Counted from the first letter of the stretch, positions 37,171-55,291 are shown. The stretch: DNA of 64,000 nucleotides from Candidatus Chisholmbacteria bacterium RIFCSPHIGHO2_01_FULL_52_32 (GCA_001816585.1 MHCJ01000006.1:40-64039), one strand, 5' to 3'. Numbers and translations: made by a program. The notes: a model not told the origin generated them from the sequence alone.

Positions 37171-37176
37171 GCTCTG

Positions 37177-37249
37177 TGCTAGGGGTGGGATTCGAACCCA
37201 CGACCTATCGCTTATGAAACGACCGCTCTGCCACTGAGCTACCCTAGCA
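37177..37249 (-). tRNA. tRNA with anticodon CAU, either elongator Met or Ile2/lysidine. They cannot be distinguished by eye.
   Basis: Minus-strand cloverleaf: GCUAGGG / UA / GCUC-AGUGGCAGA-GAGC / GUCGU-UUCAUAA-GCGAU / AGGUC / GUGGG-UUCGAAU-CCCAC / CCCUAGC-A. Confidence 0.85.
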
Positions 37250-37295: not shown

Positions 37296-37578
37296 CTTGA
37301 GTGTTGCGGGGCCAGGAGTTGAACCTGGTCTGCGAGATTATGCGTGTTGTTTTCTCCAGTTTCCTGGAGTACCGGACTATGTCTTAACCCGTTAGATAAT
37401 CATAATCACATATCTAATGGGTTCCTGGCGTATAGTCTCTACGGATTCCCATTCAAGGTCTTTCCTCGGCGTTGCCGTACTCAGTTCATGAGGGTAGGTT
37501 TCGCCGATATAGCCAGGTGCACTCCATCAATTACTCGATAGAGGGCCCATCATTGAGCCTCACGTGCTACCGTACACT
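37296..37578 (-). tRNA. Initiator tRNA-fMet (CAU) interrupted by a group I intron in the anticodon loop.
   Basis: 5' exon CGCGGGGUAGUGUACGGUAGCACGUGAGGCU. 3' exon CAUAAUCUCGCAGACCAGGUUCAACUCCUGGCCCCGCAA. The C1 x A72 mismatch and the CGCGGGG...CCCCGCAA acceptor are initiator hallmarks (compare E. coli tRNAfMet CGCGGGG...CCCCCGCAACCA). The spliced anticodon loop is CUCAUAA. Confidence 0.7.
37335..37547 (-). ncRNA. Group I intron of about 213 nt inserted between U33 and C34 of tRNA-fMet.
   Basis: The 5' exon ends in U (the P1 U-G pair) and the intron ends in G. The core elements resemble the R and S elements as I recall them from group I introns such as Tetrahymena's (written from memory): GUAGAGACUAUACG against an R-like ucAGAGACUAnA, and UAAGACAUAGUCCGG against an S-like AAGAUAUAGUCC. 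An IGS-like GGGCCCUC can pair with the exon end GAGGCU. Confidence 0.65.
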
Positions 37579-39593: not shown

Positions 39594-39651
39594 CCTCACT
39601 ATAACACACAATCAAAGCGAGCAAAAGAAGGAAAAGAAATAAACACGATTG

Positions 39652-39723
39652 TGCGCCCGCTTGGATTCGAACCAAGGACATCTACTTTATAAGAGTAGCG
39701 CTCTGCCGCTGAGCTACGGGCGC
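39652..39723 (-). tRNA. tRNA-Ile with anticodon UAU (reads AUA).
   Basis: Minus-strand cloverleaf: GCGCCCG / UA / GCUC-AGCGGCAGA-GC / CUACU-CUUAUAA-AGUAG / AUGUC / CUUGG-UUCGAAU-CCAAG / CGGGCGC-A. Positions 34-36 are UAU. Confidence 0.75.
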
Positions 39724-43425: not shown

Positions 43426-44025
43426 TCAAAAATCCAAGCCCTTCACGGCTTTCCTGCCCCGATCATACGGATGCTTGATTTTTCGCATCTCGGTCACCAG
43501 ATCCGCAAGCTCCACAATTTTTGGATGTGCACCTCTTCCTGTCAACACCAAATGTGTCTTCTCCCTATCAGAAATTAGGTCAATTAGAGCACTTAGGTCA
43601 ATTAAGCCGTCAGAGACGGCGTTATTAACCTCATCCAAAATCAGCATATCAACCTGTCCTACCAGCTCCTTTGCTTTCCGAAGTGCCGCCTTCGCCGCTT
43701 TCTTATGCTCATTCTCCCCCGCCCGATCCACAACCACCCCACCGCCAGCAATCGGAGCGGTTTTGATCTGCCTTCCTCTCTGATTCATAATTCCTGATTC
43801 ATAATTCGTGATTCTAAAACCCACACCCATTGGAAATACCTTGAAGTTAGGAAATTGATCCGCTAATCGATACTCGGAAACATCCCAGTCTCTGCTCTTG
43901 TACCAACAAACCATCACAACCGTCATTCCGGAGAGTGCCGCCCGCACCCCTACTCCCAACGCAGCAGAAGTTTTCCCCTTTCCGTTCCCTGTGAATACGT
44001 AAACAAGTCCTTTTTGAATAGTCAT
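43426..44025 (-). CDS. Cob(I)yrinic acid a,c-diamide (corrinoid) adenosyltransferase, CobA/BtuR type.
   Basis: P-loop GNGKGKTSAALG... and a CobA-type N-terminus. Contains an in-frame 14-nt x2 tandem duplication (RITNYESGIMNQ). Confidence 0.7.
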   Translation of the reverse strand: MTIQKGLVYVFTGNGKGKTSAALGVGVRAALSGMTVVMVCWYKSRDWDVSEYRLADQFPNFKVFPMGVGFRITNYESGIMNQRGRQIKTAPIAGGGVVVDRAGENEHKKAAKAALRKAKELVGQVDMLILDEVNNAVSDGLIDLSALIDLISDREKTHLVLTGRGAHPKIVELADLVTEMRKIKHPYDRGRKAVKGLDF

Positions 44026-44112
44026 TCTAAACCCTAGACGCTAAACCCTAAACGCTACTGACAATTGTTGCATTTTTCTCCACTTATCGTTGCATCCAGA
44101 CGAAAAGTGCTT

Positions 44113-44517
44113 CTATTTGTCCCTCAACCGTCTCTGGGCCAGCCGAAGGATGGCTCCGATTCGGACATCTCCGCCATCGAAAAACCGCCGCACGTCATCG
44201 CTGTACTTGGTAATCCAATCCGACAATGCCTCAGGCGTTTCCTTTGCTAAATATTCCACAACCTGTTGACAGGAGATGACCGTTTTTTTCGTTAATGGCG
44301 TACCATCGTTAGGTCGTACTATTCCCATGGCATCAAGTCCCTGCGACATAAGGACTTGTTCAACCGCTCTCCGTCGTGCATCCTCAATACCTCGCCGTGG
44401 TCCTTCCCGCTCCCCGAAGTAGTGATTCACCAATCCGGAAAAGAGCTCTTCGGGAGATAATGGCTCTTGGACAGTTCGGTCTCGACTTATAGAAAGCTCA
44501 TCTCTTGCTTCTGTCAT
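44113..44517 (-). CDS. Hypothetical protein.
   Basis: 134-aa ORF. Confidence 0.35.
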   Translation of the reverse strand: MTEARDELSISRDRTVQEPLSPEELFSGLVNHYFGEREGPRRGIEDARRRAVEQVLMSQGLDAMGIVRPNDGTPLTKKTVISCQQVVEYLAKETPEALSDWITKYSDDVRRFFDGGDVRIGAILRLAQRRLRDK

Positions 44518-44567: not shown

Positions 44568-45182
44568 TTAACTCAAATATCCCGTCTTCTCAAACACAAT
44601 CCTCGGAACATCACGTTTAAGCGTAAATCCATGTTTCCGTAGCAATGTTTGAAGAACCACAAGCGGCAGTCCCACGACATTCGTAAAGCTTCCGCGAACG
44701 TCAGAAACAAATCCCTTTGCCCCCATCTGGATCGCATACCCTCCCCCTTTATCAAGCGGTTCACCCGTTGCCACGTAATCGTTGATCTCCTCATCAGACA
44801 AAGTTCGGAACGTGACAGCCGTTTCCTCCGCCGCCGACACGCTCTTTTTTGTCAAGGCATCAACCACCGCTATCCCGGTGTACACCGCATGTGTCTTCCC
44901 GGAAAGCTTTTTTAAAATCCGCACCGCATCCCTTTCATCCTTCGGCTTCCCAATAGTTTCCCCACCAACAGAAACAACGGTATCCGCTCCAATAACGAGT
45001 CCCTCCGAACGCATCTCAGCAACGAAACGGGCTTTCAAAAGCGAAAGTTTGAAAACGAGCTTTCGGGGATCTCTCAGGGAAATTTTCCGCTCGTCAAAAT
45101 AGGAAGGGACGACAGCAAATGGAACTCCCAGCCAAGATAAAAGCTCGCGCCGACGTTCTGATGACGAAGCTAAAATAAGCAT
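44568..45182 (-). CDS. maf: Maf-family nucleoside-triphosphate pyrophosphatase.
   Basis: MLILASSSERRRELL...GADTVV...GKP motifs. Confidence 0.8.
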   Translation of the reverse strand: MLILASSSERRRELLSWLGVPFAVVPSYFDERKISLRDPRKLVFKLSLLKARFVAEMRSEGLVIGADTVVSVGGETIGKPKDERDAVRILKKLSGKTHAVYTGIAVVDALTKKSVSAAEETAVTFRTLSDEEINDYVATGEPLDKGGGYAIQMGAKGFVSDVRGSFTNVVGLPLVVLQTLLRKHGFTLKRDVPRIVFEKTGYLS

Positions 45183-45271: not shown

Positions 45272-47587
45272 CTACACTTCACAAACGCTGTACCCGCACA
45301 GCTGGCACTTTGAACAACCCTCGGTAAACGACATCGGTCCGCCGCATTCCGGACACTTGCCCCCTTCCGTCTCACCCACCCCAAAAGAGGCCGCCCGTAC
45401 CGCAAGCGGTGTGACAGAAAGTTTGCTCTGAATCCGAACACTCTTCGATTCCTTCTCAAGGATCTGCACCGACTTGCTTTTATCCCGATAGATCGTGATC
45501 CCTTTACACCCCATCTTCCAGGCTAACCGATAGGCCTTTTCGACATCCTCGATCACTGCCGATTCCGGAAAGTTGATCGTCTTGGAAACCGCATTATCGG
45601 TGTATTCCTGAAACGCCCCCTGCATTCGCACATGCCATTCTGGAGAAATATCATGGGCAGTCCGGAAAACATCCTTTATCCACTGTGGAATACCCAAAAC
45701 GGAGGTAACGCTCCCCGTTTTTGAGACTTCATGAAGGAGAGGTTCAATTGCGCTCCGCTCACCGTTTCCAACCGCACCAGCCAGCGCCTGTTCAAAAGAA
45801 GTGTTCATATACGTCAACCCTTCCTGATCTACAACGTTTTTCACAAATGAAAGAGCAAAGATCGGCTCGATCCCGGATGAGCAATCGGCAACCATGCTGA
45901 TCGTCCCTGTGGGGGCTATGGTCGTGACGGCAACATTCCGCACTTTCACTCGCTTCCCCAAATGCGGATGCTTTCGTGCAAAGTCGCTCTTCTCCCATAG
46001 CGGGAACGCACCCTTCTCCGCAGCAATCCTCGCGCTTTCATCCCATCCGATCCTCTGAATGAACTGCGCCACTTTCTTTGCCAAACGAACAGCTTCCTCG
46101 CTGTCGTATCGGACACGAAGCGAAACTAATAAATCCGCCCATCCCATCACCCCGAGGCCAATCCGACGGACATTATGTGCCATGGCGCTGATTTGAGGAA
46201 TGGGATAAAAACTCGCATCAATCCCGTCATCCAAGAACCGTACCGCTATTCGCACGACCTCCTCCAACCGCTTCCAATCAATGAGGTCTTCTGTTTTACC
46301 CTTTGCCCTTTGCCCGCTTGTCCTGAGCGAAGTCGAAGGATTGCCCTTTGCCTTTTTAACAAACTTCCCCAAATTAACAGACCCTAAGTTGCACACGTCA
46401 AACGGATGAAGCGGTTGTTCCCCGCAAACATTGGTTGCCGTAATAGGCCCAAGAGCCTTAAGAAGCGGGTTATCTCGATTGATCGCATCAAGATAAATCA
46501 TTCCCGGATCGCCGGTTTTCCATGCCAAAGCAACAGCCTGGTCAAACACCGTCCGCGCCTTCGTTCGCCGTACGACCGCGCCCGTACGCGGATTCACCAA
46601 ATCCCAATGACCATCCTTCTCAACCGCTCCCATGAACGCATCACTCGCCCCCACCGAAATATTGAAGTTGCCAATTTCCCCTTCCTGCGTCTTGCAGGTG
46701 ATAAATTCAAAAATATCCGGGTGGTCGGCATTCAGGATGCCCATGTTAGCCCCGCGGTGGCGCCCTCCAAGCATCACGATCTCCGTCGCCGCATCAAACG
46801 CCTTCATAAACGAAACGGGCCCTGAGGCAAATCCGCCGCCACCGACCGCATCTCCGTTCGGTCGAAGCTTGGAAAAATTGTAACCAGTCCCCCCACCCGA
46901 CTGATGAATGAGTGCTGTCCACTTCACCGCATCAAAAATTGCCTCCATGTCATCCTCAACCGGTAACACGAAGCAATTTGCGAGTAGCCCCCGTTTTTGC
47001 CCGGCTCCCCGAAAGTAACAACCTGCCGGAACAAAAGAAAACGTGCTCATTATCTCGCTAAATTTTTGCTCCCAAGCCTTACGCTGACGCTTCTCGACTG
47101 CGGAAACACAAGCAGCCACTCGCTCCACCGCTTGTCGGGGCGTTTCAACCACATTCCCCCGTTCATCTTTGAGAAGATAACGCCTGGCCATTGCCTTGAG
47201 AGCATTGACGGACATCCCGAGGTCATCCTCAACGCCCAACACGTTCCGCACTGTCCGCAGCTCCGCTTGTCGTTGTCGGAAGAGGATGTACGCCTTCGCC
47301 GTACGGTAGTGAGACCCCGCCATCAATACCTGCTCTACGATATCCTGCACCTGCTCAACAGTCGGAATCACCTTTCTCGCCCCTCGAAGCCCTGGCGAAG
47401 TGGGGCCATTGGTTCGCCGGAGAAGTTCAATCACAATACTCGTCAGCCGCTTCGCTTCAATTTCCCCGAACTCGCCGGTTACAGCCGAAGATTTTAAGAT
47501 CGCAATGGTGATCTTGGCGGGATCAAACGCTACCACCCCTCCATCGCGCTTTCTGATCTGCTTAATGGCGAAAGCGTTATCTGCCAT
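45272..47587 (-). CDS. nrdJ: Class II (adenosylcobalamin-dependent) ribonucleotide reductase, paralog 1, with an N-terminal ATP-cone and C-terminal Zn-ribbon.
   Basis: ATP-cone (IRKRDGGVVAFDPAKI), a catalytic core with NLGSVNL, the PTGTIS motif, and a C-terminal CPECGG...C..C..C. An in-frame insert AKGNPSTSLRTSGQRAKGK matches the interspersed repeat core. Confidence 0.85.
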   Translation of the reverse strand: MADNAFAIKQIRKRDGGVVAFDPAKITIAILKSSAVTGEFGEIEAKRLTSIVIELLRRTNGPTSPGLRGARKVIPTVEQVQDIVEQVLMAGSHYRTAKAYILFRQRQAELRTVRNVLGVEDDLGMSVNALKAMARRYLLKDERGNVVETPRQAVERVAACVSAVEKRQRKAWEQKFSEIMSTFSFVPAGCYFRGAGQKRGLLANCFVLPVEDDMEAIFDAVKWTALIHQSGGGTGYNFSKLRPNGDAVGGGGFASGPVSFMKAFDAATEIVMLGGRHRGANMGILNADHPDIFEFITCKTQEGEIGNFNISVGASDAFMGAVEKDGHWDLVNPRTGAVVRRTKARTVFDQAVALAWKTGDPGMIYLDAINRDNPLLKALGPITATNVCGEQPLHPFDVCNLGSVNLGKFVKKAKGNPSTSLRTSGQRAKGKTEDLIDWKRLEEVVRIAVRFLDDGIDASFYPIPQISAMAHNVRRIGLGVMGWADLLVSLRVRYDSEEAVRLAKKVAQFIQRIGWDESARIAAEKGAFPLWEKSDFARKHPHLGKRVKVRNVAVTTIAPTGTISMVADCSSGIEPIFALSFVKNVVDQEGLTYMNTSFEQALAGAVGNGERSAIEPLLHEVSKTGSVTSVLGIPQWIKDVFRTAHDISPEWHVRMQGAFQEYTDNAVSKTINFPESAVIEDVEKAYRLAWKMGCKGITIYRDKSKSVQILEKESKSVRIQSKLSVTPLAVRAASFGVGETEGGKCPECGGPMSFTEGCSKCQLCGYSVCEV
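46297..46352. repeat. In-frame insert inside nrdJ paralog 1: CTTTGCC heptamers flanking the cctgagcgaagtcgaagga element core.
   Basis: ccctttgccctttgcccgcttgtcctgagcgaagtcgaaggattgccctttgcc. Confidence 0.75.
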
Positions 47588-47622
47588 AATCGCTGGAAAT
47601 GAATTTGGATAGTAGAAATTGG

Positions 47623-48051
47623 TTATTTGTCATTCTCGCCCTCAGCGAGAGGATGTCCTCCTCTGTACTTTGCTTTAATCCGATAGTAGTGCCGCCAACG
47701 CTCCGCTTCGGACGCGTCGCTTGCAAAGATTTTTTCAGGATACTTCTCCTCATTCTTCCTCATCTTCATCTCAAACGCGTGGGCTAAATCGATATGTAAA
47801 CTCTCCGCCATGACGAGCACCCACCAGAGAACATCCGCCAATTCATCGCAGATGGGCCCATAAAGCCTGGCTTCCTTTCTTACTTCATCTCCCGTTTTCC
47901 ATTGAAAATGTTCCAAAAGCTCGGTTGCCTCCAGAACCACGCTCAACGCGATGTCTTTTGGATCCTCACCGGTCCACTTCCTTCGTTGACGAAACTGAAG
48001 GACCTGCTTCTTAAGCTCTTCAACCTTCGTCTTTTCATCATTCATCGACAT
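47623..48051 (-). CDS. MazG-like nucleotide pyrophosphohydrolase.
   Basis: EATELLEHF...ELADVLWWV is the MazG EExxE motif region. Confidence 0.7.
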   Translation of the reverse strand: MSMNDEKTKVEELKKQVLQFRQRRKWTGEDPKDIALSVVLEATELLEHFQWKTGDEVRKEARLYGPICDELADVLWWVLVMAESLHIDLAHAFEMKMRKNEEKYPEKIFASDASEAERWRHYYRIKAKYRGGHPLAEGENDK

Positions 48052-48063
48052 ATTCCTCCTTTC

Positions 48064-48513
48064 TTAGTCCTTACTCCCGACTCGTAAATAATCCTCCACA
48101 ATCCTGTTATGATCAAAGGCGAGGCGTGGGAGTTCATCCAAAGCGAACCACTTCGCCTCCAATGCATCATCACCGAATTGTAGCACCCCACCAATAATCA
48201 ATACCTCATACACAACGGTCACCCGCTGCAACGTATCACGGCGTGGATCGGAATAGACACCAAGAAACTTCCCCACTCGTCCGCTCAGTCCGGCTTCCTC
48301 AGAAAACTCCCTCAAAACCGCCTCCTCCGCATCCTCATCCCAATCCAAGAGTCCGCCCGGCAATGCCCACTTTCCCCGGTCCGGTTCGTTCCCGCGTTTG
48401 ATGAGAAGTACCTTTCCATCGGAAACCGCCAAGCCGTCCACTGCAATATTACGTAAATATCTGTTCCCGCAAACCCCGCACTTCTCCCCTCGCTGCAATC
48501 GAACGGTTCCCAT
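48064..48513 (-). CDS. NUDIX hydrolase.
   Basis: Nudix box GGLLDWDEDAEEAVLREFSEEAG. Confidence 0.8.
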   Translation of the reverse strand: MGTVRLQRGEKCGVCGNRYLRNIAVDGLAVSDGKVLLIKRGNEPDRGKWALPGGLLDWDEDAEEAVLREFSEEAGLSGRVGKFLGVYSDPRRDTLQRVTVVYEVLIIGGVLQFGDDALEAKWFALDELPRLAFDHNRIVEDYLRVGSKD

Positions 48514-48516
48514 ATC

Positions 48517-48553
48517 TCTAACTTTTAACTTTTCACTTTAAACTTTAAACTTT
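48517..48553. repeat. AT-rich heptamer tandem repeat, intergenic and overlapping the nrdJ paralog 2 stop.
   Basis: aacttttaacttttcactttaaactttaaactttaca. Confidence 0.8.
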
Positions 48554-50821
48554 ACAGTAGCTATATCCGCAATTCGCGCACGTCGCACACCCTTCGCTAT
48601 ACGTGAGTTCGCTACCGCACTCCGGACAAGCTGTCCCTTCCCTTGACGCCTTCTCTCCCATCGACCGGGGTACTTTCGCTTCCGCAAGGTTCAACACTTG
48701 ATCCGTCTTGCTTCCGTCCCGATAAATAGTAATACCCTTGCACCCGAGCCTCCAGGCCAAAAGGTAGGCCTCTCGGACATCCCGGGCACTTGCTCCTTGA
48801 CGAAAGTTGATCGTTTTTGAAACCGAGTTATCGCAGTGTTTCTGCCACGCAGCTTGAATCTTCACATGCCAAGGCCAGTCGATGTCGTGGGTCGTAACGA
48901 ATACGTCCCGCATCCGCTTCGGCAGTCCCCGAAGACCGAGAAGATGGCCAAACTTGCTGAGGTGCTTGAACACATCCTCCCTGGTAACAGAAAGGGGGCG
49001 ACTCGCAATCTGCGCCTCCAGTACTTCCGAGAATACCGGATCAACGATGGTTAACGACTTCGTTGGACGATTCTTGCGATCGTCCTCATAGAAGGTACGC
49101 CGGGTAGTGAGGAGGGAAAACACCGGTTCAATTCCCGAAGAGCAATTGGCAAAAAGACTGATAGTTCCCGTAGGAGCTATGGTCAGCATCGTGGCATTCC
49201 GATAGCGCTCCGACGTCCCCGAATAAAAGCTCATGTCAAAATTGGGGAACACCCCGCGCTTCTTCGCCAACTCCAAAGAGGCGGCTTCCGCCTCCTTCTG
49301 AATGAACTTTCCCAAATGATCGGCCATCTGAACAGCCAAAGAAGAGTTATAAGGGATTCCCATACGGTACAAAAGATGGGCAAATCCCATGACCCCCAAC
49401 CCGATCTTCCGATTCCCAAACCGTACGATCCGCTCAATTTCAGGCAGAACGTAGGTATTCGCCTCAATCATGTCATCCAAAAAGCGAATCACCGTCCGAA
49501 CCGTCCTCCCCAACTCATCCCAATCAACTTCCCACCCAAATGGGTCATCGGCTTTCTTTCTCCGAAGGTGCGAGGAGAGGACGATGGAGGAAAGATTACA
49601 GCTTTCAAAGGGTAATAGCGGCTGTTCCCCGCAGGGATTTGTCGCATCAAGCTTCCCCAGTGTCGGTGTCGGATTGTCCTGCTCTAGTCGATCCAAAAAG
49701 ATCATCCCCGGATCCCCGGTTTTGTGGGCAAATTCGACAATTGCCCAAAAAAGCTCTGAGGCCTTCATGGTTTTTTGCACTTCTCCCGTTCGCGGATTCG
49801 TAAGATTCCACGGCTTTCCCTTCACCACCGCCTCCATAAATGCATCCGGCGCGCCCACGGAAATGTTGAAATTTTTGATGTTTCCGTCCGTCGCTTTAAT
49901 CTTGACGAATTCCAAAAGGTCAGGATGATCGGCATTGAGAATGGCCATGTTCCCCCCCTGTCGCTTTGCTCCCTGAAGAATCTTAGACAGTGCCGCCGAA
50001 TAGGCCTGCAGAAAGTCAACCGGACCGCTGGCTGCCCCCGGAACGTTTTTGACCTTATCGCCCCGCGGCCGGATCTTCGAGAAGTTGAATCCCGTACCGC
50101 CGTTGTTCTTATGGACTAAAGCCGCCTCCCCCAACGTCTTAAAAATCGCCGCAATACTATCCTCAATCCCCAACACAAAACAGGCAGACAGCTGTCCCGT
50201 TCCCCCGTCGTTACCCGCCTCAAACATCGCCTTTCCCGAACAAATAAAGCGGAAGTTGACCATGCGGTCAAAAAACTCCCGTGCCGTCCGCTCCACATCC
50301 CGTTCATCCCCCCAGGCAATCTCTGCCTTGGCGATAGATCGTGCCACCCGCCAAAGCATCTGCCCCGCAGACTCGACCGGCCGTCCCTTCATGTCGGTAC
50401 GGACATACCGTTTTGTCACAACCGCAAGAGAGTGATCCGCCAAAACGGGTTCCCGGATCTGCCAAGTGTCTTTCCTTTGCCCCTTATGAGTCCCGTACAA
50501 AATATAGTACTTGGCTGTCGCAAAATACCCGGCTTTGGCTATCGCAGGTTCAACGAGGTTTCGTATCTCAAGAACGGTAACCAGTCGCCGATCCCGAAGA
50601 TCGCTACGGAGCACGTTGATAACTCCATCGATGATCCCCTGAGCCCCGGCCTCTGAATACTCACCGGTGTCCGATCCGGCTGCCACCACACTCGCCTCAA
50701 TCTTCGAAAGTAAAAATGGCTCAATCCGTCCGTCTTTCTTGCGAACCTGCAAAGATTTTGGGAAAGGTTGTTTGCGAAAACCGAAAGGTTGAACGGGTTT
50801 TCGAGGGTAAAGTAGCTGCAT
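48545..50821 (-). CDS. nrdJ: Class II ribonucleotide reductase, paralog 2, with an ATP-cone and C-terminal Zn-ribbon.
   Basis: ATP-cone (VRKKDGRIEPF), NLSSIVL, PTGTIS and CPECGS...C..C..C. Confidence 0.85.
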   Translation of the reverse strand: MQLLYPRKPVQPFGFRKQPFPKSLQVRKKDGRIEPFLLSKIEASVVAAGSDTGEYSEAGAQGIIDGVINVLRSDLRDRRLVTVLEIRNLVEPAIAKAGYFATAKYYILYGTHKGQRKDTWQIREPVLADHSLAVVTKRYVRTDMKGRPVESAGQMLWRVARSIAKAEIAWGDERDVERTAREFFDRMVNFRFICSGKAMFEAGNDGGTGQLSACFVLGIEDSIAAIFKTLGEAALVHKNNGGTGFNFSKIRPRGDKVKNVPGAASGPVDFLQAYSAALSKILQGAKRQGGNMAILNADHPDLLEFVKIKATDGNIKNFNISVGAPDAFMEAVVKGKPWNLTNPRTGEVQKTMKASELFWAIVEFAHKTGDPGMIFLDRLEQDNPTPTLGKLDATNPCGEQPLLPFESCNLSSIVLSSHLRRKKADDPFGWEVDWDELGRTVRTVIRFLDDMIEANTYVLPEIERIVRFGNRKIGLGVMGFAHLLYRMGIPYNSSLAVQMADHLGKFIQKEAEAASLELAKKRGVFPNFDMSFYSGTSERYRNATMLTIAPTGTISLFANCSSGIEPVFSLLTTRRTFYEDDRKNRPTKSLTIVDPVFSEVLEAQIASRPLSVTREDVFKHLSKFGHLLGLRGLPKRMRDVFVTTHDIDWPWHVKIQAAWQKHCDNSVSKTINFRQGASARDVREAYLLAWRLGCKGITIYRDGSKTDQVLNLAEAKVPRSMGEKASREGTACPECGSELTYSEGCATCANCGYSYCKV

Positions 50822-50881
50822 AGGCGATGAAGAATGGAAGCAAAAATAGCTTTATTAAATAACAAAGAACAAAGAGCCAAA

Positions 50882-52852
50882 CTAGGTCGAGCTGCAAAAA
50901 CTATAGGAGCAGTTTGGGCAAGTCGCACAGCCTTCATGAAAGACCATCGGCGTTTTACACTCCGGGCAAAGACCGCTATCTCCATTGGTCACCACGTAGT
51001 GATGGGAAACACCCCCATTCCCTCCCTCTCGATGCCCATTTCCGGAAGGGAAAGAATCTGCCGCTGCGACCATGGCTTTGGAGGCGGCAACGGTATCAAC
51101 GGTTTCCGACGCCGCAGTCCCTTGCCCCAAATGCAGCACCTGCTGATCCCGACTCCGATCCCGATAAATCGTAATCCCCATGCATCCGCTCTCGTAAGCG
51201 GAAAGGTAGGCCTGGTAAACATCCTCAACCGTTGCCGATGAGGGCAAATTGATGGTCTTTGAAACCGCACTATCCACATGGTGTTGCCACGCCGCTTGCA
51301 TCCGGACATGCCACCCATAGGAAATGTCATGGCTGGTAACGAAAACCTTTGCTAAATCCAAAGGAACGCCGGAAACACCTTGGCAGCCTCCCGTCCTTGA
51401 GACTTCATCCAAAATGCGATTAAAGACGGGTCGCTGCCGAACGCGCCGCGACAATGCCCGCGAAAACGCGGCGTTGAACTCAACCATCTCGGTCTTTCCG
51501 ATTTCAAGGATGTTGCGGCGGGTGTATGACAAGGCAAACAGGGGCTCAATGCCCGACGAACAGGAAGCTAAGATACTGATCGTCCCCGTCGGAGCAATCG
51601 TGGTAATGGTCGAATTCCGGATTGCTTGGTATCCTTCCTTCTCCCATCGGCTGCCGCGAAATGCCGGGAAAGAACCTCGTGATCGGCCCAGGACAACCGA
51701 TTCTTCACGAGCCACCCGTTCGATGAACCTGGCCAACCTCTCGGCCAAAACCAACCCGCGCGTCGAGTTATAAGGAATACCAAGGTCAACGAGAAGATCC
51801 GCAAAACCCATGACCCCCAACCCGATCTTGCGGGTCTTGAGAGACATCTCCGTAATCTCGGAAAGGGGATAATCACAAACGTCAATCACGTTATCCAAAA
51901 ACTTAACGGCCAGCCGTACGGTCCGCTCCAGTTTTCTGAAATCGACGCTCCTCTTTCCCCCTGCCACGCGGACGAACTTTGCCAGATTCACCGACCCTAA
52001 GTTGCAGCTCTGATAGGGCAAAAGGGGCTGCTCCCCACAAGGATTCGTCGCCTCAATCTCCCCAAGGTGGCGGATAGGGCAGGCTGCATTCATGCGGTCC
52101 AAAAAGACCAAGCCAGGATCCGCCACCTTCCATGCATTCTCACTGATAAGGTCAAGAATCGTCCGGGCAGCCACCTCACGAACAACTTTCCCGTCGTGAG
52201 GATCAATGAGGCTATACGTAGTGCCCTCGGAGACAGCCTCCATGAAGCGATCGGTAATCCCAACCGATACGTTGAAGTTCGTCAACCTCCCCCCATCCCT
52301 CTTTGCAGCAATGAATTCCTCGATATCGGGGTGATCAACGCGCAAAATTCCCATCATCGCCACCCGTCGACTCGAACCCTCGTTAATGACTTGTGCCATA
52401 TGATCAAAGAGGTCCATAAACGAAACCGGACCCGATGCCACCCCGCCGGTGGTCGAAACCGGAGATCCCCGCGGACGTAATTTGGAAAAAGAATACCCGA
52501 CACCCCCGCCGGTCCTAAGGACCAAGGCAGCATCATGGAGTGTCTTAAAAATACTCTCCAAGGTATCCTCAATCGGCAGGACAAAACACGCTGACAGTTG
52601 CCGAAAGCCATTGCGTCCCGCATGCATCAAGGTCGGCGAATTCGGCAAAAACTGAAAATCCGTCATGATTTCATAGAACGCGTGCGCATCCAGGGAAACG
52701 TCCTCTCCATAGGTTCCGCTTGCAGAAGCGACGCCATTGGCAACCCGCTTAAACATCTGTTCAGGGGTTTCAACGACATTCCCCGCCTGATCGCGACGCA
52801 GGTAATCGCGCTTCTTTAGAACGGTAATGGCATTCTCCGACAAACGAATCAT
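50882..52852 (-). CDS. nrdJ: Class II ribonucleotide reductase, paralog 3, with no ATP-cone and a C-terminal Zn-ribbon.
   Basis: Starts directly in the catalytic domain. NLGSVNL, PTGTIS and CPECKT...C..C..C. Confidence 0.8.
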   Translation of the reverse strand: MIRLSENAITVLKKRDYLRRDQAGNVVETPEQMFKRVANGVASASGTYGEDVSLDAHAFYEIMTDFQFLPNSPTLMHAGRNGFRQLSACFVLPIEDTLESIFKTLHDAALVLRTGGGVGYSFSKLRPRGSPVSTTGGVASGPVSFMDLFDHMAQVINEGSSRRVAMMGILRVDHPDIEEFIAAKRDGGRLTNFNVSVGITDRFMEAVSEGTTYSLIDPHDGKVVREVAARTILDLISENAWKVADPGLVFLDRMNAACPIRHLGEIEATNPCGEQPLLPYQSCNLGSVNLAKFVRVAGGKRSVDFRKLERTVRLAVKFLDNVIDVCDYPLSEITEMSLKTRKIGLGVMGFADLLVDLGIPYNSTRGLVLAERLARFIERVAREESVVLGRSRGSFPAFRGSRWEKEGYQAIRNSTITTIAPTGTISILASCSSGIEPLFALSYTRRNILEIGKTEMVEFNAAFSRALSRRVRQRPVFNRILDEVSRTGGCQGVSGVPLDLAKVFVTSHDISYGWHVRMQAAWQHHVDSAVSKTINLPSSATVEDVYQAYLSAYESGCMGITIYRDRSRDQQVLHLGQGTAASETVDTVAASKAMVAAADSFPSGNGHREGGNGGVSHHYVVTNGDSGLCPECKTPMVFHEGCATCPNCSYSFCSST

Positions 52853-52864
52853 AACCCTCGCTTT

Positions 52865-53335
52865 TTATGTGACGTGTTTTCCTAAACGCTCTATCTCCCG
52901 CTTAAAATCATCAATATCCTGAAAGTCTCGGTAGACGCTCGCAAAAAGGATGTAACCAACCGGGTCCAATTTGCGAAGCCTGGTCACCACCAACTTCCCG
53001 ATTTCCCAGCTTTTCACTTCCTTATTTGCTCGAGCTCTCAGCTTCTGTTCAACCTCTTCAACCAAAGACTCAATCTGTTCGATCGTTACGGGCCGCTTCC
53101 ACGTCGCCTTCATCAAACCTTTCCGAAGCTTATCCCGGTCAAACGACTCCCTTCTCCCGTCTTTTTTGATCACCACTAAGTCGAGTCCCTCAACCCGCTC
53201 ATACGTTGTAAATCGCTTCGCACATCTCTCGCACTCTCGACGCCGACGGATGCTCTGCTCATCTTCCGAGATTCTGCTCTCAAGGACACTGCTTTCAGTA
53301 GTTCCACAGTAGGGACACTTCATGGAAAATCCCAA
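52865..53335 (-). CDS. nrdR: Transcriptional repressor NrdR.
   Basis: N-terminal Zn-ribbon MKCPYCG...C..C followed by an ATP-cone. 156 aa. Confidence 0.9.
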   Translation of the reverse strand: MGFSMKCPYCGTTESSVLESRISEDEQSIRRRRECERCAKRFTTYERVEGLDLVVIKKDGRRESFDRDKLRKGLMKATWKRPVTIEQIESLVEEVEQKLRARANKEVKSWEIGKLVVTRLRKLDPVGYILFASVYRDFQDIDDFKREIERLGKHVT

Positions 53336-53359
53336 AACTGAAAAACCAGAGTGAAAAAA

Positions 53360-53409
53360 ACACTAAATATAGTGCTCTAATTCAAGCTAGGACACTAACA
53401 CTAGACTGT
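53360..53409 (-). promoter_or_regulatory. Two candidate NrdR boxes upstream of nrdR, about 33 bp centre-to-centre.
   Basis: acactaaatatagtgc (53360-53375) against the NrdR-box consensus acaCwAtATaTwGtgt, and a weaker acactaacactagactgt at 53392-53409. Confidence 0.45.
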
Positions 53410-53575
53410 CAACCACCAATTAATACATCAAACTAGATCGTCTAGAGAAAAGAAGCTGAAACAATGGAATCCCCGTATCCCCCACCAAGTATTCACTACT
53501 CAATGAAAAAAGGAAAAAAATGCTTTCTCAACATTTTATACTCAAAACTTAAAAAAGTGATTGATAATAAAATTC

Positions 53576-54889
53576 TTAAGATTGTACCCTTTCGCACCGG
53601 GGACAACTATTTCCGGTGTATTCCTCCCGACATCGCTCACATCGCTTCTTCCCATTCTCACTCCCGCAAGCGTCTTCCCCCCCAATCCAGCTTTGCGTTA
53701 TCGGATCCCAATATTGACCCGTATCCTCACGGGTCGACGGGTGAAATCCGGCAATTTGGATCTCCCCTGAAAGCAGCGCGTCCATATAACGATCAACATC
53801 CCTACCCTTCTCCTTCGCCCACTGCCGTTGACCAAAAGAGAGCATGCCCCACAGCGTTTTTAAAAAAGCGCGCTTATCTTCCTTAAGCAGCAACCCTAAA
53901 AGCCCTTGAGCATTATCCCGGATCAGCGTACAAACCCGCTCCTCTTGCTCTCGCTCTCCTTCAGCATCAAATTCGAATAAATAGCGTCCGAACCGCTGTC
54001 GAAATAATCCGTCTAAAGCGGCAAGGTACGGCGCCAAGACCGAGTGAACGTGCACATACTCCCCAGCAGTCGAAGGTGATTTCGGCAACCGCTTAAGTTC
54101 CGCGACTTCGGCCGGAAAGCGAAAGGAGCGGGGCGTGCGAACGAGCCACTCGGGAAAAATTGGGCTCTCGACAATCACATCGTCCATGTCAGACAAACGG
54201 GTCATCATGGCATCTTGGGTATGGCTATCCAAAGCATCGATCCCAAAATCAACCCCAAGGGTATGGATGTTTAACAAAAAGGCTCGCTCCCGGTTTGACA
54301 ATCTCCTGTCAACAAACAGGAACCATCCGGCTACCTCAACTTCACAGTCACGCTTGTCGACGACAACCAACGGATTAATGACGTTCCCTTTGGAATCGTA
54401 CTTCGCATACAACTCCGTGGGACTAATAATCACAACTCCTTCACCCACTTCAGAATCAACTAAAGTTGAAAAAGCCTTTTTGAGCCCTTCCCCGACAGCT
54501 TCGGGGTATTGATCAAAATCAAGGTAGCTTTCCAGCTGCTCGCCATATTCATCCAATTGGTAGGCGTAAACACCCCAAGCACCATCAATGTTTCGCATCA
54601 CATACCGCGTTAGCGGCTGTACGGTAAGGGCCCGCTCTCCCACACCATACTCTGAGAGCAGCGCTCGCGACTTGGCGCGCAGGCTCTCTAAAACCGCGGG
54701 CACACCAATGGCTATTCCAACGCGATCAATCACCTCCTGCGTTCTCCGAAGCTCATGATCGAAGTTAAAGATCTTGCCGAACCACGGCTCACTTCCAAAT
54801 CCCGTCCTCGGCAATTCCGCTTGTGCAACTTGAGCCATAACCATCTCCAGTTGACCTTTATTAAACTTCACGCGAGGGAAAGACCCCAT
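53576..54889 (-). CDS. Hypothetical protein with a C-terminal Zn-ribbon.
   Basis: 437 aa, ending in CGSENGKKRCERCREEYTGNSCPRCE. No recognised catalytic motif. Confidence 0.4.
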   Translation of the reverse strand: MGSFPRVKFNKGQLEMVMAQVAQAELPRTGFGSEPWFGKIFNFDHELRRTQEVIDRVGIAIGVPAVLESLRAKSRALLSEYGVGERALTVQPLTRYVMRNIDGAWGVYAYQLDEYGEQLESYLDFDQYPEAVGEGLKKAFSTLVDSEVGEGVVIISPTELYAKYDSKGNVINPLVVVDKRDCEVEVAGWFLFVDRRLSNRERAFLLNIHTLGVDFGIDALDSHTQDAMMTRLSDMDDVIVESPIFPEWLVRTPRSFRFPAEVAELKRLPKSPSTAGEYVHVHSVLAPYLAALDGLFRQRFGRYLFEFDAEGEREQEERVCTLIRDNAQGLLGLLLKEDKRAFLKTLWGMLSFGQRQWAKEKGRDVDRYMDALLSGEIQIAGFHPSTREDTGQYWDPITQSWIGGEDACGSENGKKRCERCREEYTGNSCPRCERVQS

Positions 54890-54902
54890 CTCCGCCGAAA
54901 AG

Positions 54903-54930
54903 ACGACAAAAAACCTTCCCGAAGGAAGGT
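54903..54930 (-). terminator. Intrinsic terminator.
   Basis: Minus strand: aaccuuccuucgggaagguu followed by uuuug. Confidence 0.35.
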
Positions 54931-55291
54931 TTGTAACTTGAACGCTAGCCCCTAATCGCTAGTCGCTACTCTGACTCCTGCTCGGGAGAAACATTGCGCC
55001 CACGACGTTCCTGACTTCCCCGCCCTTCGCGAAGAGCGGGGTTACAGTTGCGGCACAGCCACCAAGTCAGACTTGGTGACCCTGAAGTGATCCGCCAACC
55101 GGCGGATCTCCTTCAGGGCTCCCGACTAGACCTCGCAGTTGCCAGAGGCAACTTAAAGGGAATTCACGGGATTCCGTCGCGGAAACAAAAAGGTTGTCAA
55201 ATGCTAAAACCTAAAGATACCAGCCAAGCTTAAGCGGTGTCAACATGAGAAAGTATCTGAAAATTATCGCCACGGAAAAACCATAAGCCCA

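Follow-up and report, generated by a model that had tools for sequence, protein, structure and literature searches.

Three class II reductase genes in one probable operon

A 64,000-nt stretch of DNA (hereafter the window) from a groundwater bacterium with a tiny genome, a Candidatus Chisholmbacteria of the Microgenomates group within the Patescibacteria or Candidate Phyla Radiation (CPR), carries three tandem and diverged nrdJ genes for class II ribonucleotide reductase (RNR), in a cluster headed by nrdR. We consider it probable, if only by a little, that this NrdR-controlled operon co-expresses three functional, sub-functionalised isoenzymes of the dimeric NrdJd subclass, along with enzymes that activate the cofactor or process nucleotides. 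Established, as far as sequence can do so, are the genes present, their domains and motifs, the conserved order, the NrdR boxes and the age of the paralogs.

We scanned the window for open reading frames (ORFs) and applied Pfam and NCBIfam (TIGR) models, with curated cutoffs, to its proteins. The operon genes all lie on the minus strand. At their head, nrdR (52865–53323) encodes 152 aa from an ATG at 53323, matches TIGR00244 at 196 bits (cutoff 125), and carries the Pfam domains Zn_ribbon_NrdR (PF22811) and ATP-cone (PF03477). Its ORF reaches upstream to a TTG at 53335; both the model match and external gene calls, 152 aa in the related locus L001, favour the ATG. Then come the nrdJ genes, named here by their slot in the array and by the numbering of an earlier prediction made from the DNA alone (the original prediction): slot A (J3, 50882–52852, 656 aa), slot B (J2, 48545–50821, 758 aa) and, after genes for a NUDIX hydrolase and a MazG-like protein, slot C (J1, 45272–47587, 771 aa). 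Downstream lie maf, a hypothetical gene and a corrinoid adenosyltransferase gene of the cobO type. The ORFs bear out the order originally proposed for nrdR, the three nrdJ, NUDIX and MazG. From nrdR through cobO the intergenic gaps measure 12, 60, 31, 12, 35, 89, 50 and 87 bp.

A gene for the 656-aa protein, with the same neighbours in identical order, was found on at least six contigs that had been assembled independently (ENA, NCBI GCA_001816955.1, Logan runs) by different pipelines and from different sequencing runs. This rules out the worry, raised with the original prediction, that the array is an assembly artefact made of collapsed or misjoined repeats. At 39–44% protein identity the copies are also too unlike to confuse an assembler, and we give the artefact essentially no credence. 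NCBI already labels the three proteins as adenosylcobalamin-dependent RNR. In its records OGY17867.1 and OGY20699.1, J1 is given as 647 aa from M125, so that an in-frame ATP-cone is missed; nearly all J1 orthologues have this domain. The other two NrdJs are OGY17793 and OGY17792.

Intact enzymes of the dimeric subclass

All three large proteins contain the RNR all-alpha and barrel domains (Pfam) and pass the 400-bit cutoff of the NrdJ_Z equivalog TIGR02504 (J1 672, J2 605 and J3 679 bits). As first described, they are full length and clearly diverged, with pairwise identities of 39%, 44% and 41%. Pfam also agrees with the original prediction in finding an ATP-cone in J1 (E = 3e-15) and J2 (E = 4e-15) and none in J3.

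One earlier description needs correction, that of the enzymes as monomeric-type. Their closest solved relative is the dimeric NrdJ of Thermotoga maritima (1xje), matched at E = 5e-119 and contiguously over residues 122–452. The model for the monomeric ribonucleoside triphosphate reductase (RTPR), TIGR02505, scores only 60–74 bits against a cutoff of 340 for all three paralogs, and the monomeric Lactobacillus leichmannii enzyme (1l1l) is matched only at E = 9e-5. Judged by a loop 1 that is short, lacking the long insertion by which monomeric enzymes mimic a dimer interface, and by nearness to dimeric enzymes, the window NrdJs are predicted from sequence to belong to the dimeric NrdJd subclass of the T. 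maritima type.

For comparison, one genome per GTDB species was scanned with a profile of the middle paralog; this returned 80 loci, annotated by BLASTP against the window proteins, and the alignment and tree set holds 201 NrdJ bodies from 81 loci. Residues C134, N320, C322, E324 and C333 (T. maritima numbering) are kept in all three window paralogs, so that every copy has the thiyl-radical cysteine (in N-x-C-G-E), the redox cysteine pair, the Asn and the Glu. Across the 201 bodies these positions are invariant with one exception, at C134. Residues conserved elsewhere in the family have switched conservatively at 0, 0 and 4 positions in the window clades, and none has been lost. Since all three retain their catalytic residues, none is a pseudo-paralog, and the three copies are apparently catalytically competent.

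Each paralog ends in a six-cysteine array with the identical spacing C-x2-C-x9-C-x2-C-x2-C-x4-C, as expected of the common C-terminal Zn-ribbon that had been noticed. No NrdB-like or activase-like gene was found in the operon or the surveyed flanks. Use of adenosylcobalamin (AdoCbl) by these enzymes finds indirect support in this absence and in the conserved linkage to cobO described below.

The in-frame repeat insert that had been attributed to J1 proved to be a 21-nt microrepeat, (GGGCAAA)x3 at 46295–46315 on the minus strand (found with TRF), lying in a hypervariable surface loop. In 117 J1 orthologues this loop is 18–57 aa long, and the window copy has 39 aa, so we set the repeat aside as ordinary loop-length variation.

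The array is old and typical of the lineage

Orthologues of each paralog, from Microgenomates and Patescibacteria metagenomes, are 55–80% identical, versus 39–44% between paralogs, which rules out a recent tandem duplication. The three orthologue sets form separate clades with neighbour-joining bootstraps of 99–100, a separation inflated by top-hit sampling. In the tree of 201 bodies the slot-B clade (J2) is monophyletic over Microgenomates, Dojkabacteria and WWE3 with a bootstrap of 88, and the slot-C clade (J1) has a bootstrap of 95. Slot A is held by different clades in different sublineages; the J3 type of the window is also found in loci titled Beckwithbacteria, among others, and J3 is about as near to non-CPR NrdJd (50–56%) as to its CPR orthologues. 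GC content and codon usage of the three nrdJ genes fall within the range of other window genes. Where the original prediction had left the choice between recent duplicates and separate acquisitions to a phylogeny, the copies fall in separate old clades. To judge from these comparisons the paralogy is ancient, the normal state of the lineage and not a peculiarity of this genome.

Loci titled Chisholmbacteria, Woesebacteria, Beckwithbacteria and "Microgenomates group" repeat the order nrdR, slot A, slot B, optional NUDIX and/or MazG, slot C, maf, cobO, and the order of slots is fixed across the related loci. Both ends of the array are bounded in 41 loci, of which 34 carry three NrdJ bodies and four carry two. 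Three copies in a row, which had been thought unusual, are therefore usual here, and genomes with several nrdJ have already been reported as common (PMC8365446).

Several observations were made along the way. The record titles of many GTDB representatives that carry the array (L009–L061) read "uncultured Pseudomonadales", "Gammaproteobacteria" or "Candidatus Saccharibacteria", labels that look unreliable. The arrays L057–L059 have three to four separate NrdJ bodies, with phosphate loops (SGT, VTRS, PGGS and PGTR) that are all non-canonical; in L058, titled candidate division WWE3, the six-cysteine tail is on the last of four bodies only, and no such tail was detected in L057 or L059. Six NrdJ homologues of 1,120–1,200 aa (P0065, P0096, P0140, P0162, P0173 and P0190) contain intein domains (PF14528, PF14890), most with an interrupted N-x-C-G-E motif.

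What separates the paralogs

The apical loop that binds the substrate phosphate decides between nucleoside diphosphate (NDP) and nucleoside triphosphate (NTP) preference, as grafting has shown: PNSP marks NDP enzymes and a Gly-Arg pair (PAGR, PSGR) marks NTP enzymes (Schell et al. 2021, PMC8365446). In J3 the loop reads FLPNSPT, and PNSP is found in 65 of 74 members of its clade. Because of this loop, J3 is predicted to be an NDP reducer. The loops of J1 and J2 do not match the PNSP motif of the NDP type. Among 117 J1 orthologues the loop is PAGR in 59, PAGC in 40 and PAGG in 10; the window copy has PAGC, keeping the Gly and losing the Arg. J2 enzymes have a Gly-Lys loop, CAGK or CSGK, the latter in the window. 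By these motifs J1 and J2 look like variants of the NTP type.

Loop 2, the specificity loop (T. maritima 200–212), also differs. In the non-CPR NrdJd sampled it reads VIKQGGxRRGANM, with K202, Q203, R207 and R208 invariant. In J3 it is VINEGSSRRVAMM. The J2 consensus is (K/Q)ILQGAKRQG(A/G)N(I/M), and KILQGAKRQGGNM in the window copy; J1 has QVMQGGKKRGANM, which becomes IVMLGGRHRGANM in the sublineage of the window. Each version is strongly conserved inside its own clade, and K202 is substituted in all three window paralogs.

ATP-cones are distributed by slot. They are universal in slot C (30/30, plus 6/6 in a Woese-type clade) and present in 16 of 54 slot-B bodies. The slot-A clades have none (0/24, 0/9 and 0/21), and a J3 group defined by identity has two in 15.

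Some of these features co-vary. In all nine arrays with PNSP in slot A, slot C has an Arg-less loop (PAGC, PAGG or PGGT). Within J1, PAGR is paired with the loop 2 sequence QVMQGGKKR in 57 of 57 sequences, and all Arg-less variants have a changed loop 2. We treat the co-variation between slots A and C as a lead only, as it could come from shared ancestry.

A divergent NrdJ clade occupies slot A in 24 loci (L009–L061). It has a hybrid phosphate loop, PNGR, and intact catalytic residues, together with radical changes at sites conserved in the family, such as N to C right after the second redox cysteine, G to Y and R to V.

One box-bearing promoter region

We inspected the 240 bp upstream of nrdR, scoring NrdR boxes against the 14-nt core CACWATATATWGTG. 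A promoter-like element (53384–53412, minus strand) has a -35 hexamer TTGACA at 53412–53407, a 17-nt spacer and a -10 hexamer TAGCTT at 53389–53384; the -10 matches at only 3 of 6 positions, and a generic promoter scan missed the element. Of the two NrdR-box-like palindromes originally noted here, one stood up well. Box 2, gcaCtatatttaGtgt (53360–53375, minus strand), lies just downstream of the -10 and has one core mismatch; no other site in the 64 kb comes within one mismatch of the core. Box 1, agtCtagtgttaGtgt (53392–53407, minus strand), overlaps the -35 and spacer and is degenerate, with six core mismatches. It nevertheless keeps the two G:C pairs that are critical in Streptomyces coelicolor and lies 32 bp, centre to centre, upstream of box 2. 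The promoter and both boxes are kept in the two closest relatives, L007 and L008, where C4 and G13 of box 1 are invariant.

In the regulatory survey (81 loci, 1.39 Mb), putative NrdR boxes with at most two mismatches numbered 21 within 300 bp upstream of nrdR versus 19 elsewhere. No boxes or promoters were found before the internal paralogs in the window, and none recurred there in the 81 loci; the idea of looking for a box at each paralog thus yielded boxes in front of nrdR only. Intrinsic terminators within the operon were at chance level (17 found versus 14 ± 4.4 expected), and no cobalamin riboswitch or other Rfam element was detected in the operon. With one box-bearing promoter region, short gaps and no internal boxes or promoter-like sites, we infer a single NrdR-autoregulated, co-transcribed unit.

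Accessory genes

The NUDIX hydrolase (48064–48513, 149 aa; PF00293, E = 1e-21) has an intact NUDIX box, which reads G-LLDWD-E-DAEEAVL-RE-F-S-EE-A-G-L in translation (pattern G-x5-E-x7-RE-F-x-EE-x-G-L). Among solved structures its best match is 2yyh, an entry labelled "8-oxo-dGTPase domain". A heptamer tandem repeat, TAAAGTT x5 at 48520–48554, lies just ahead of the NUDIX start and overlaps the J2 stop codon. The next gene (47623–48051, 142 aa; PF12643, E = 6e-11) encodes a MazG-like all-alpha NTP pyrophosphohydrolase of the DCTPP1/RS21-C6 kind; its solved relatives are 4qgp, a small archaeal-type pyrophosphatase, and dCTP pyrophosphatase 1 (RS21-C6). NUDIX and MazG occur together in a subset of the arrays only (7 loci).

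The conserved core of the array consists of nrdR, the three nrdJ, maf and cobO. In the window maf (44568–45182, 204 aa; PF02545, E = 2e-58; TIGR00172, 174 bits, cutoff 117) encodes a nucleotide pyrophosphatase, and it comes after the last nrdJ in 28 related loci. A putative ATP:corrinoid adenosyltransferase of the CobA/CobO/BtuR family (43426–44025, 199 aa) closes the array here and in at least 25 related loci; it scores 165 bits with PF02572 (cutoff 25.7), and 138 bits with the equivalog TIGR00708, which is under the cutoff of 168. Enzymes of this family produce adenosylcobalamin. Directly before the cobO start is a second heptamer tandem repeat, GGTTTAG x4 at 44027–44057. Between maf and cobO, a 134-aa hypothetical protein (44113–44517) has no family match and no homologue in the related loci; it is known from this species only.

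The coordinated nucleotide-supply module of the original prediction gains from these data: spacing is tight, a single promoter bears the boxes, and the module extends downstream to maf and the corrinoid adenosyltransferase. The part given to NUDIX and MazG in it, sanitising the dNTP pool, holds up as a possible role, but as just one of several. Should J1 and J2 act directly on NTPs, NUDIX and MazG could just as well convert dUTP or dCTP to dUMP or dCMP for thymidylate synthesis.

Fused NrdJ proteins in sister lineages

In at least 17 species representatives of the Dojkabacteria/WS6 type, the slot-B body is joined head to tail with a second complete NrdJ body. The fusion ORF is typically ∼1,434 aa (range about 1,430–1,670 aa), with a linker of ∼25 aa and one zinc tail, at the very end; both bodies hold NPCGE and the redox cysteines. 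Just upstream is a separate slot-A NrdJ of ∼592 aa that is tail-less. Fusion loci are L064–L086 (for example L075, 9956–14260) and L062, and another fusion, with a truncated sequence, is found in P0043/L087 (1481–4948).

Interpretation and alternatives

Substrate specificities, regulation, co-transcription and accessory roles we infer along the following lines. The operon would be the lineage-typical deoxyribonucleotide-supply unit of these Microgenomates. At a high dATP/ATP balance, NrdR would repress its own gene and all genes downstream; the transcript would provide three AdoCbl-dependent, dimeric-type reductases with divided labour. Slot A, with its PNSP loop and no ATP-cone, may reduce NDPs, and slots B and C, with the glycine-containing, NTP-like loops CSGK and PAGC, may be switched on and off through their ATP-cones. 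Each paralog would have its own conserved specificity loop 2 and would presumably be re-reduced via its own six-cysteine zinc tail. The cobO-type adenosyltransferase would make the cofactor from salvaged corrinoid, and NUDIX, the DCTPP1-like MazG and Maf would serve to process the (d)NTP pool or to clean it, for instance by taking dUTP or dCTP to dUMP or dCMP. One argument for sub-functionalisation is that the clade-specific phosphate loops sit at the very residues shown to set NDP/NTP preference (PMC8365446).

Several results weigh against this interpretation. The PAGC loop of J1 lacks the Arg of the characterised Gly-Arg pair and CSGK falls outside the motifs of Schell et al., so the label "NTP-type" is a guess. 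A PNSP member is present in just 10 of the 46 arrays that have at least three bodies, and 12 arrays are uniformly of Gly-Arg or Gly-Lys type (for example PNGR / CAGK / PAGR). Because so few arrays hold a PNSP member, an NDP/NTP split is ruled out as the general reason for three copies, and some further factor must also maintain them. Positions that discriminate the clades are not enriched in the specificity-site and dimer region (T. maritima 134–215; 2/82 versus 11/492, p = 1). Strictly discriminating positions number only 13 in total and show no regional enrichment; therefore the divergence sits in a few loops, not over the whole surface. Lastly, the fusions and the tail sharing of sister lineages speak more for bodies that associate physically than for isoenzymes that work independently.

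Such an association would make the array a heteromeric class II reductase, the main rival reading, which we regard as possible and rather doubtful. The canonical helix-bundle interface would then join the products of slots B and C, and possibly that of A. In the resulting asymmetric dimers or higher oligomers, unlike subunits would have the specificity sites, the ATP-cone and the zinc-tail reductant shuttle in common. The Dojkabacteria/WS6-type slot-B fusions, with one zinc tail next to a tail-less slot-A protein, suggest it, as do the further fusion in P0043/L087, the WWE3-type locus L058 with a tail on the last of its four bodies only, and the couplings of slot A with slot C and of PAGR with loop 2 in J1. 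However, the paralogs in the lineage of the window are separate proteins, each with a complete tail, so that association is not forced; fusion is also compatible with mere co-expression of independent enzymes, and the co-variation may reflect shared ancestry. In our estimate it is a minority possibility that a heteromeric class II RNR is formed both by the tandem paralogs of Microgenomates and by their covalently fused descendants in Dojkabacteria. The literature searched contains no account of a heteromeric RNR of unlike catalytic subunits in any class.

It is unlikely that the copies are instead condition-specific isoenzymes, tuned to reductant, cobamide form, temperature or growth phase and not to substrates. 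Same-class RNR paralogs with distinct roles are known, such as classes Ia and Ib (PMC3019208), and the paralogs here do differ in ATP-cone content. Yet the single NrdR-box promoter region, the short gaps and the lack of internal boxes or promoter-like sites argue for co-expression, and the differences are located in the substrate-phosphate and specificity loops. Redundancy, meaning transient leftovers of duplication or horizontal transfer, is the null hypothesis that Lundin et al. (2010, PMC3019208) apply by default to same-class RNR paralogs. We find it very improbable here, where three bodies in fixed order are kept in dozens of species-level reduced genomes, catalytic residues are invariant, paralogs are only 39–44% identical while each has orthologues at 55–80%, and gene composition shows no anomaly. 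Redundancy and assembly artefact are effectively excluded, and sub-functionalised, co-expressed NrdJd isoenzymes remain the reading that we prefer.

Other features of the window

Directly upstream of nrdR, a 437-aa protein (53576–54889, minus strand) has no family match; it carries a C-terminal Cys-rich motif, CERCREEYTGNSCPRCE, and has a homologue (33% identity) at the same position in L013. The 400-bp spacer upstream of this ORF (54890–55291, minus strand) gave a cobalamin riboswitch match of 17.5 bits against a gathering threshold of 31.5, which we do not credit, and a RAGATH-32 match of 19.5 against 41.8, with a strong hairpin and T-run at 54932–54911. Given the B12 context these signals are suggestive, not convincing.

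Elsewhere, a group I intron (RF00028, 82.7 bits; 37353–37565, minus strand) precedes a tRNA-Met(CAT) gene (37176–37248, minus strand) by 105 nt. A tRNA-Ile gene (39651–39723, minus strand) has the anticodon TAT (UAU), an uncommon means of reading AUA codons. GC skew is negative in all 2-kb bins of 1–64000 (cumulative -5.2) and the minus strand holds almost every long ORF, which fits a single replichore with strong gene-strand bias.

Relation to known systems and significance

The presence of several NrdJs in one genome has been called a "puzzle" (Schell et al. 2021, J Biol Chem, PMC8365446). Those authors counted multi-nrdJ organisms in 1,108 of 24,059 GTDB representatives, 760 of the 1,108 mixing predicted NDP and NTP types, and suggested a selective advantage (PMC8365446). 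The phenomenon and the idea that NDP and NTP enzymes supplement one another are thus already known, and the window fits that pattern in pairing a PNSP enzyme with Gly-type, NTP-like enzymes. It departs from it in that C[AS]GK, PAGC and PNGR are outside the motifs they describe (PNSP, PAGR with Ser or Gly variants at position 2, PSMR and PQGSP; PMC8365446), and most arrays of this lineage lack PNSP. Neither their paper nor its supplement takes up Patescibacteria, the organisation of operons, triple arrays or fusions (PMC8365446). In the RNR-phylogeny and CPR literature, searched with most subscription journals outside its reach, we likewise found nothing on a conserved triple operon, Patescibacteria, the non-canonical motifs or NrdJ-NrdJ fusions.

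Among regulated systems, the nrdRJ operon of S. coelicolor has two NrdR boxes about three helical turns apart that overlap the promoter and mediate autoregulation, with two critical G:C pairs (Rozman Grinberg et al. 2022, PMC9110341). The window operon is likewise headed by nrdR with a matching box spacing; unlike it, it has three nrdJ, pyrophosphatases and probably maf and cobO, and its upstream box is degenerate. In Stackebrandtia nassauensis NrdJd, a zinc-binding C-terminal array of six cysteines passes electrons on to the active site, also between subunits (Loderer et al. 2017, PMC5704485). The window proteins end in a six-cysteine array too; that of S. nassauensis is part of a 150–220 aa domain whereas theirs follows a short linker, and the last spacing is x5 there versus x4 here.

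The whole catalytic body of T. maritima NrdJ, a dimeric NDP reductase, aligns with the window proteins and has the catalytic residues listed above in common with them and the PNSP phosphate loop in common with slot A. That organism has one gene, in contrast to three diverged copies in the window, two with ATP-cones and all with a six-cysteine tail. Pseudomonas-type split NrdJa+b is another case in which catalytic body and Cys-rich tail do not simply follow one gene, one protein; there, however, one enzyme is spread over two genes, whereas Dojkabacteria fuse two bodies and the window has three complete enzymes. The monomeric RTPR of L. leichmannii has the AdoCbl class II chemistry in common, and its Gly-Arg NTP loop PSGR resembles the Gly loops of J1 and J2, but by the scores given above it is of the other subclass.

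DNA precursors can be made only by way of ribonucleotide reductase. Although CPR genomes are very small, a whole CPR lineage here spends ∼6.5 kb on three diverged NrdJs per operon, and in a sister lineage two of these are fused, which makes for a clean natural experiment. The triple operon renders the known multi-NrdJ puzzle directly testable, and the uncharacterised loops C[AS]GK, PAGC and PNGR widen the range of sequences known for phosphate specificity. The linkage with cobO, Maf, NUDIX and the DCTPP1-like enzyme may illustrate how a salvage-dependent symbiont can arrange its dNTP supply.

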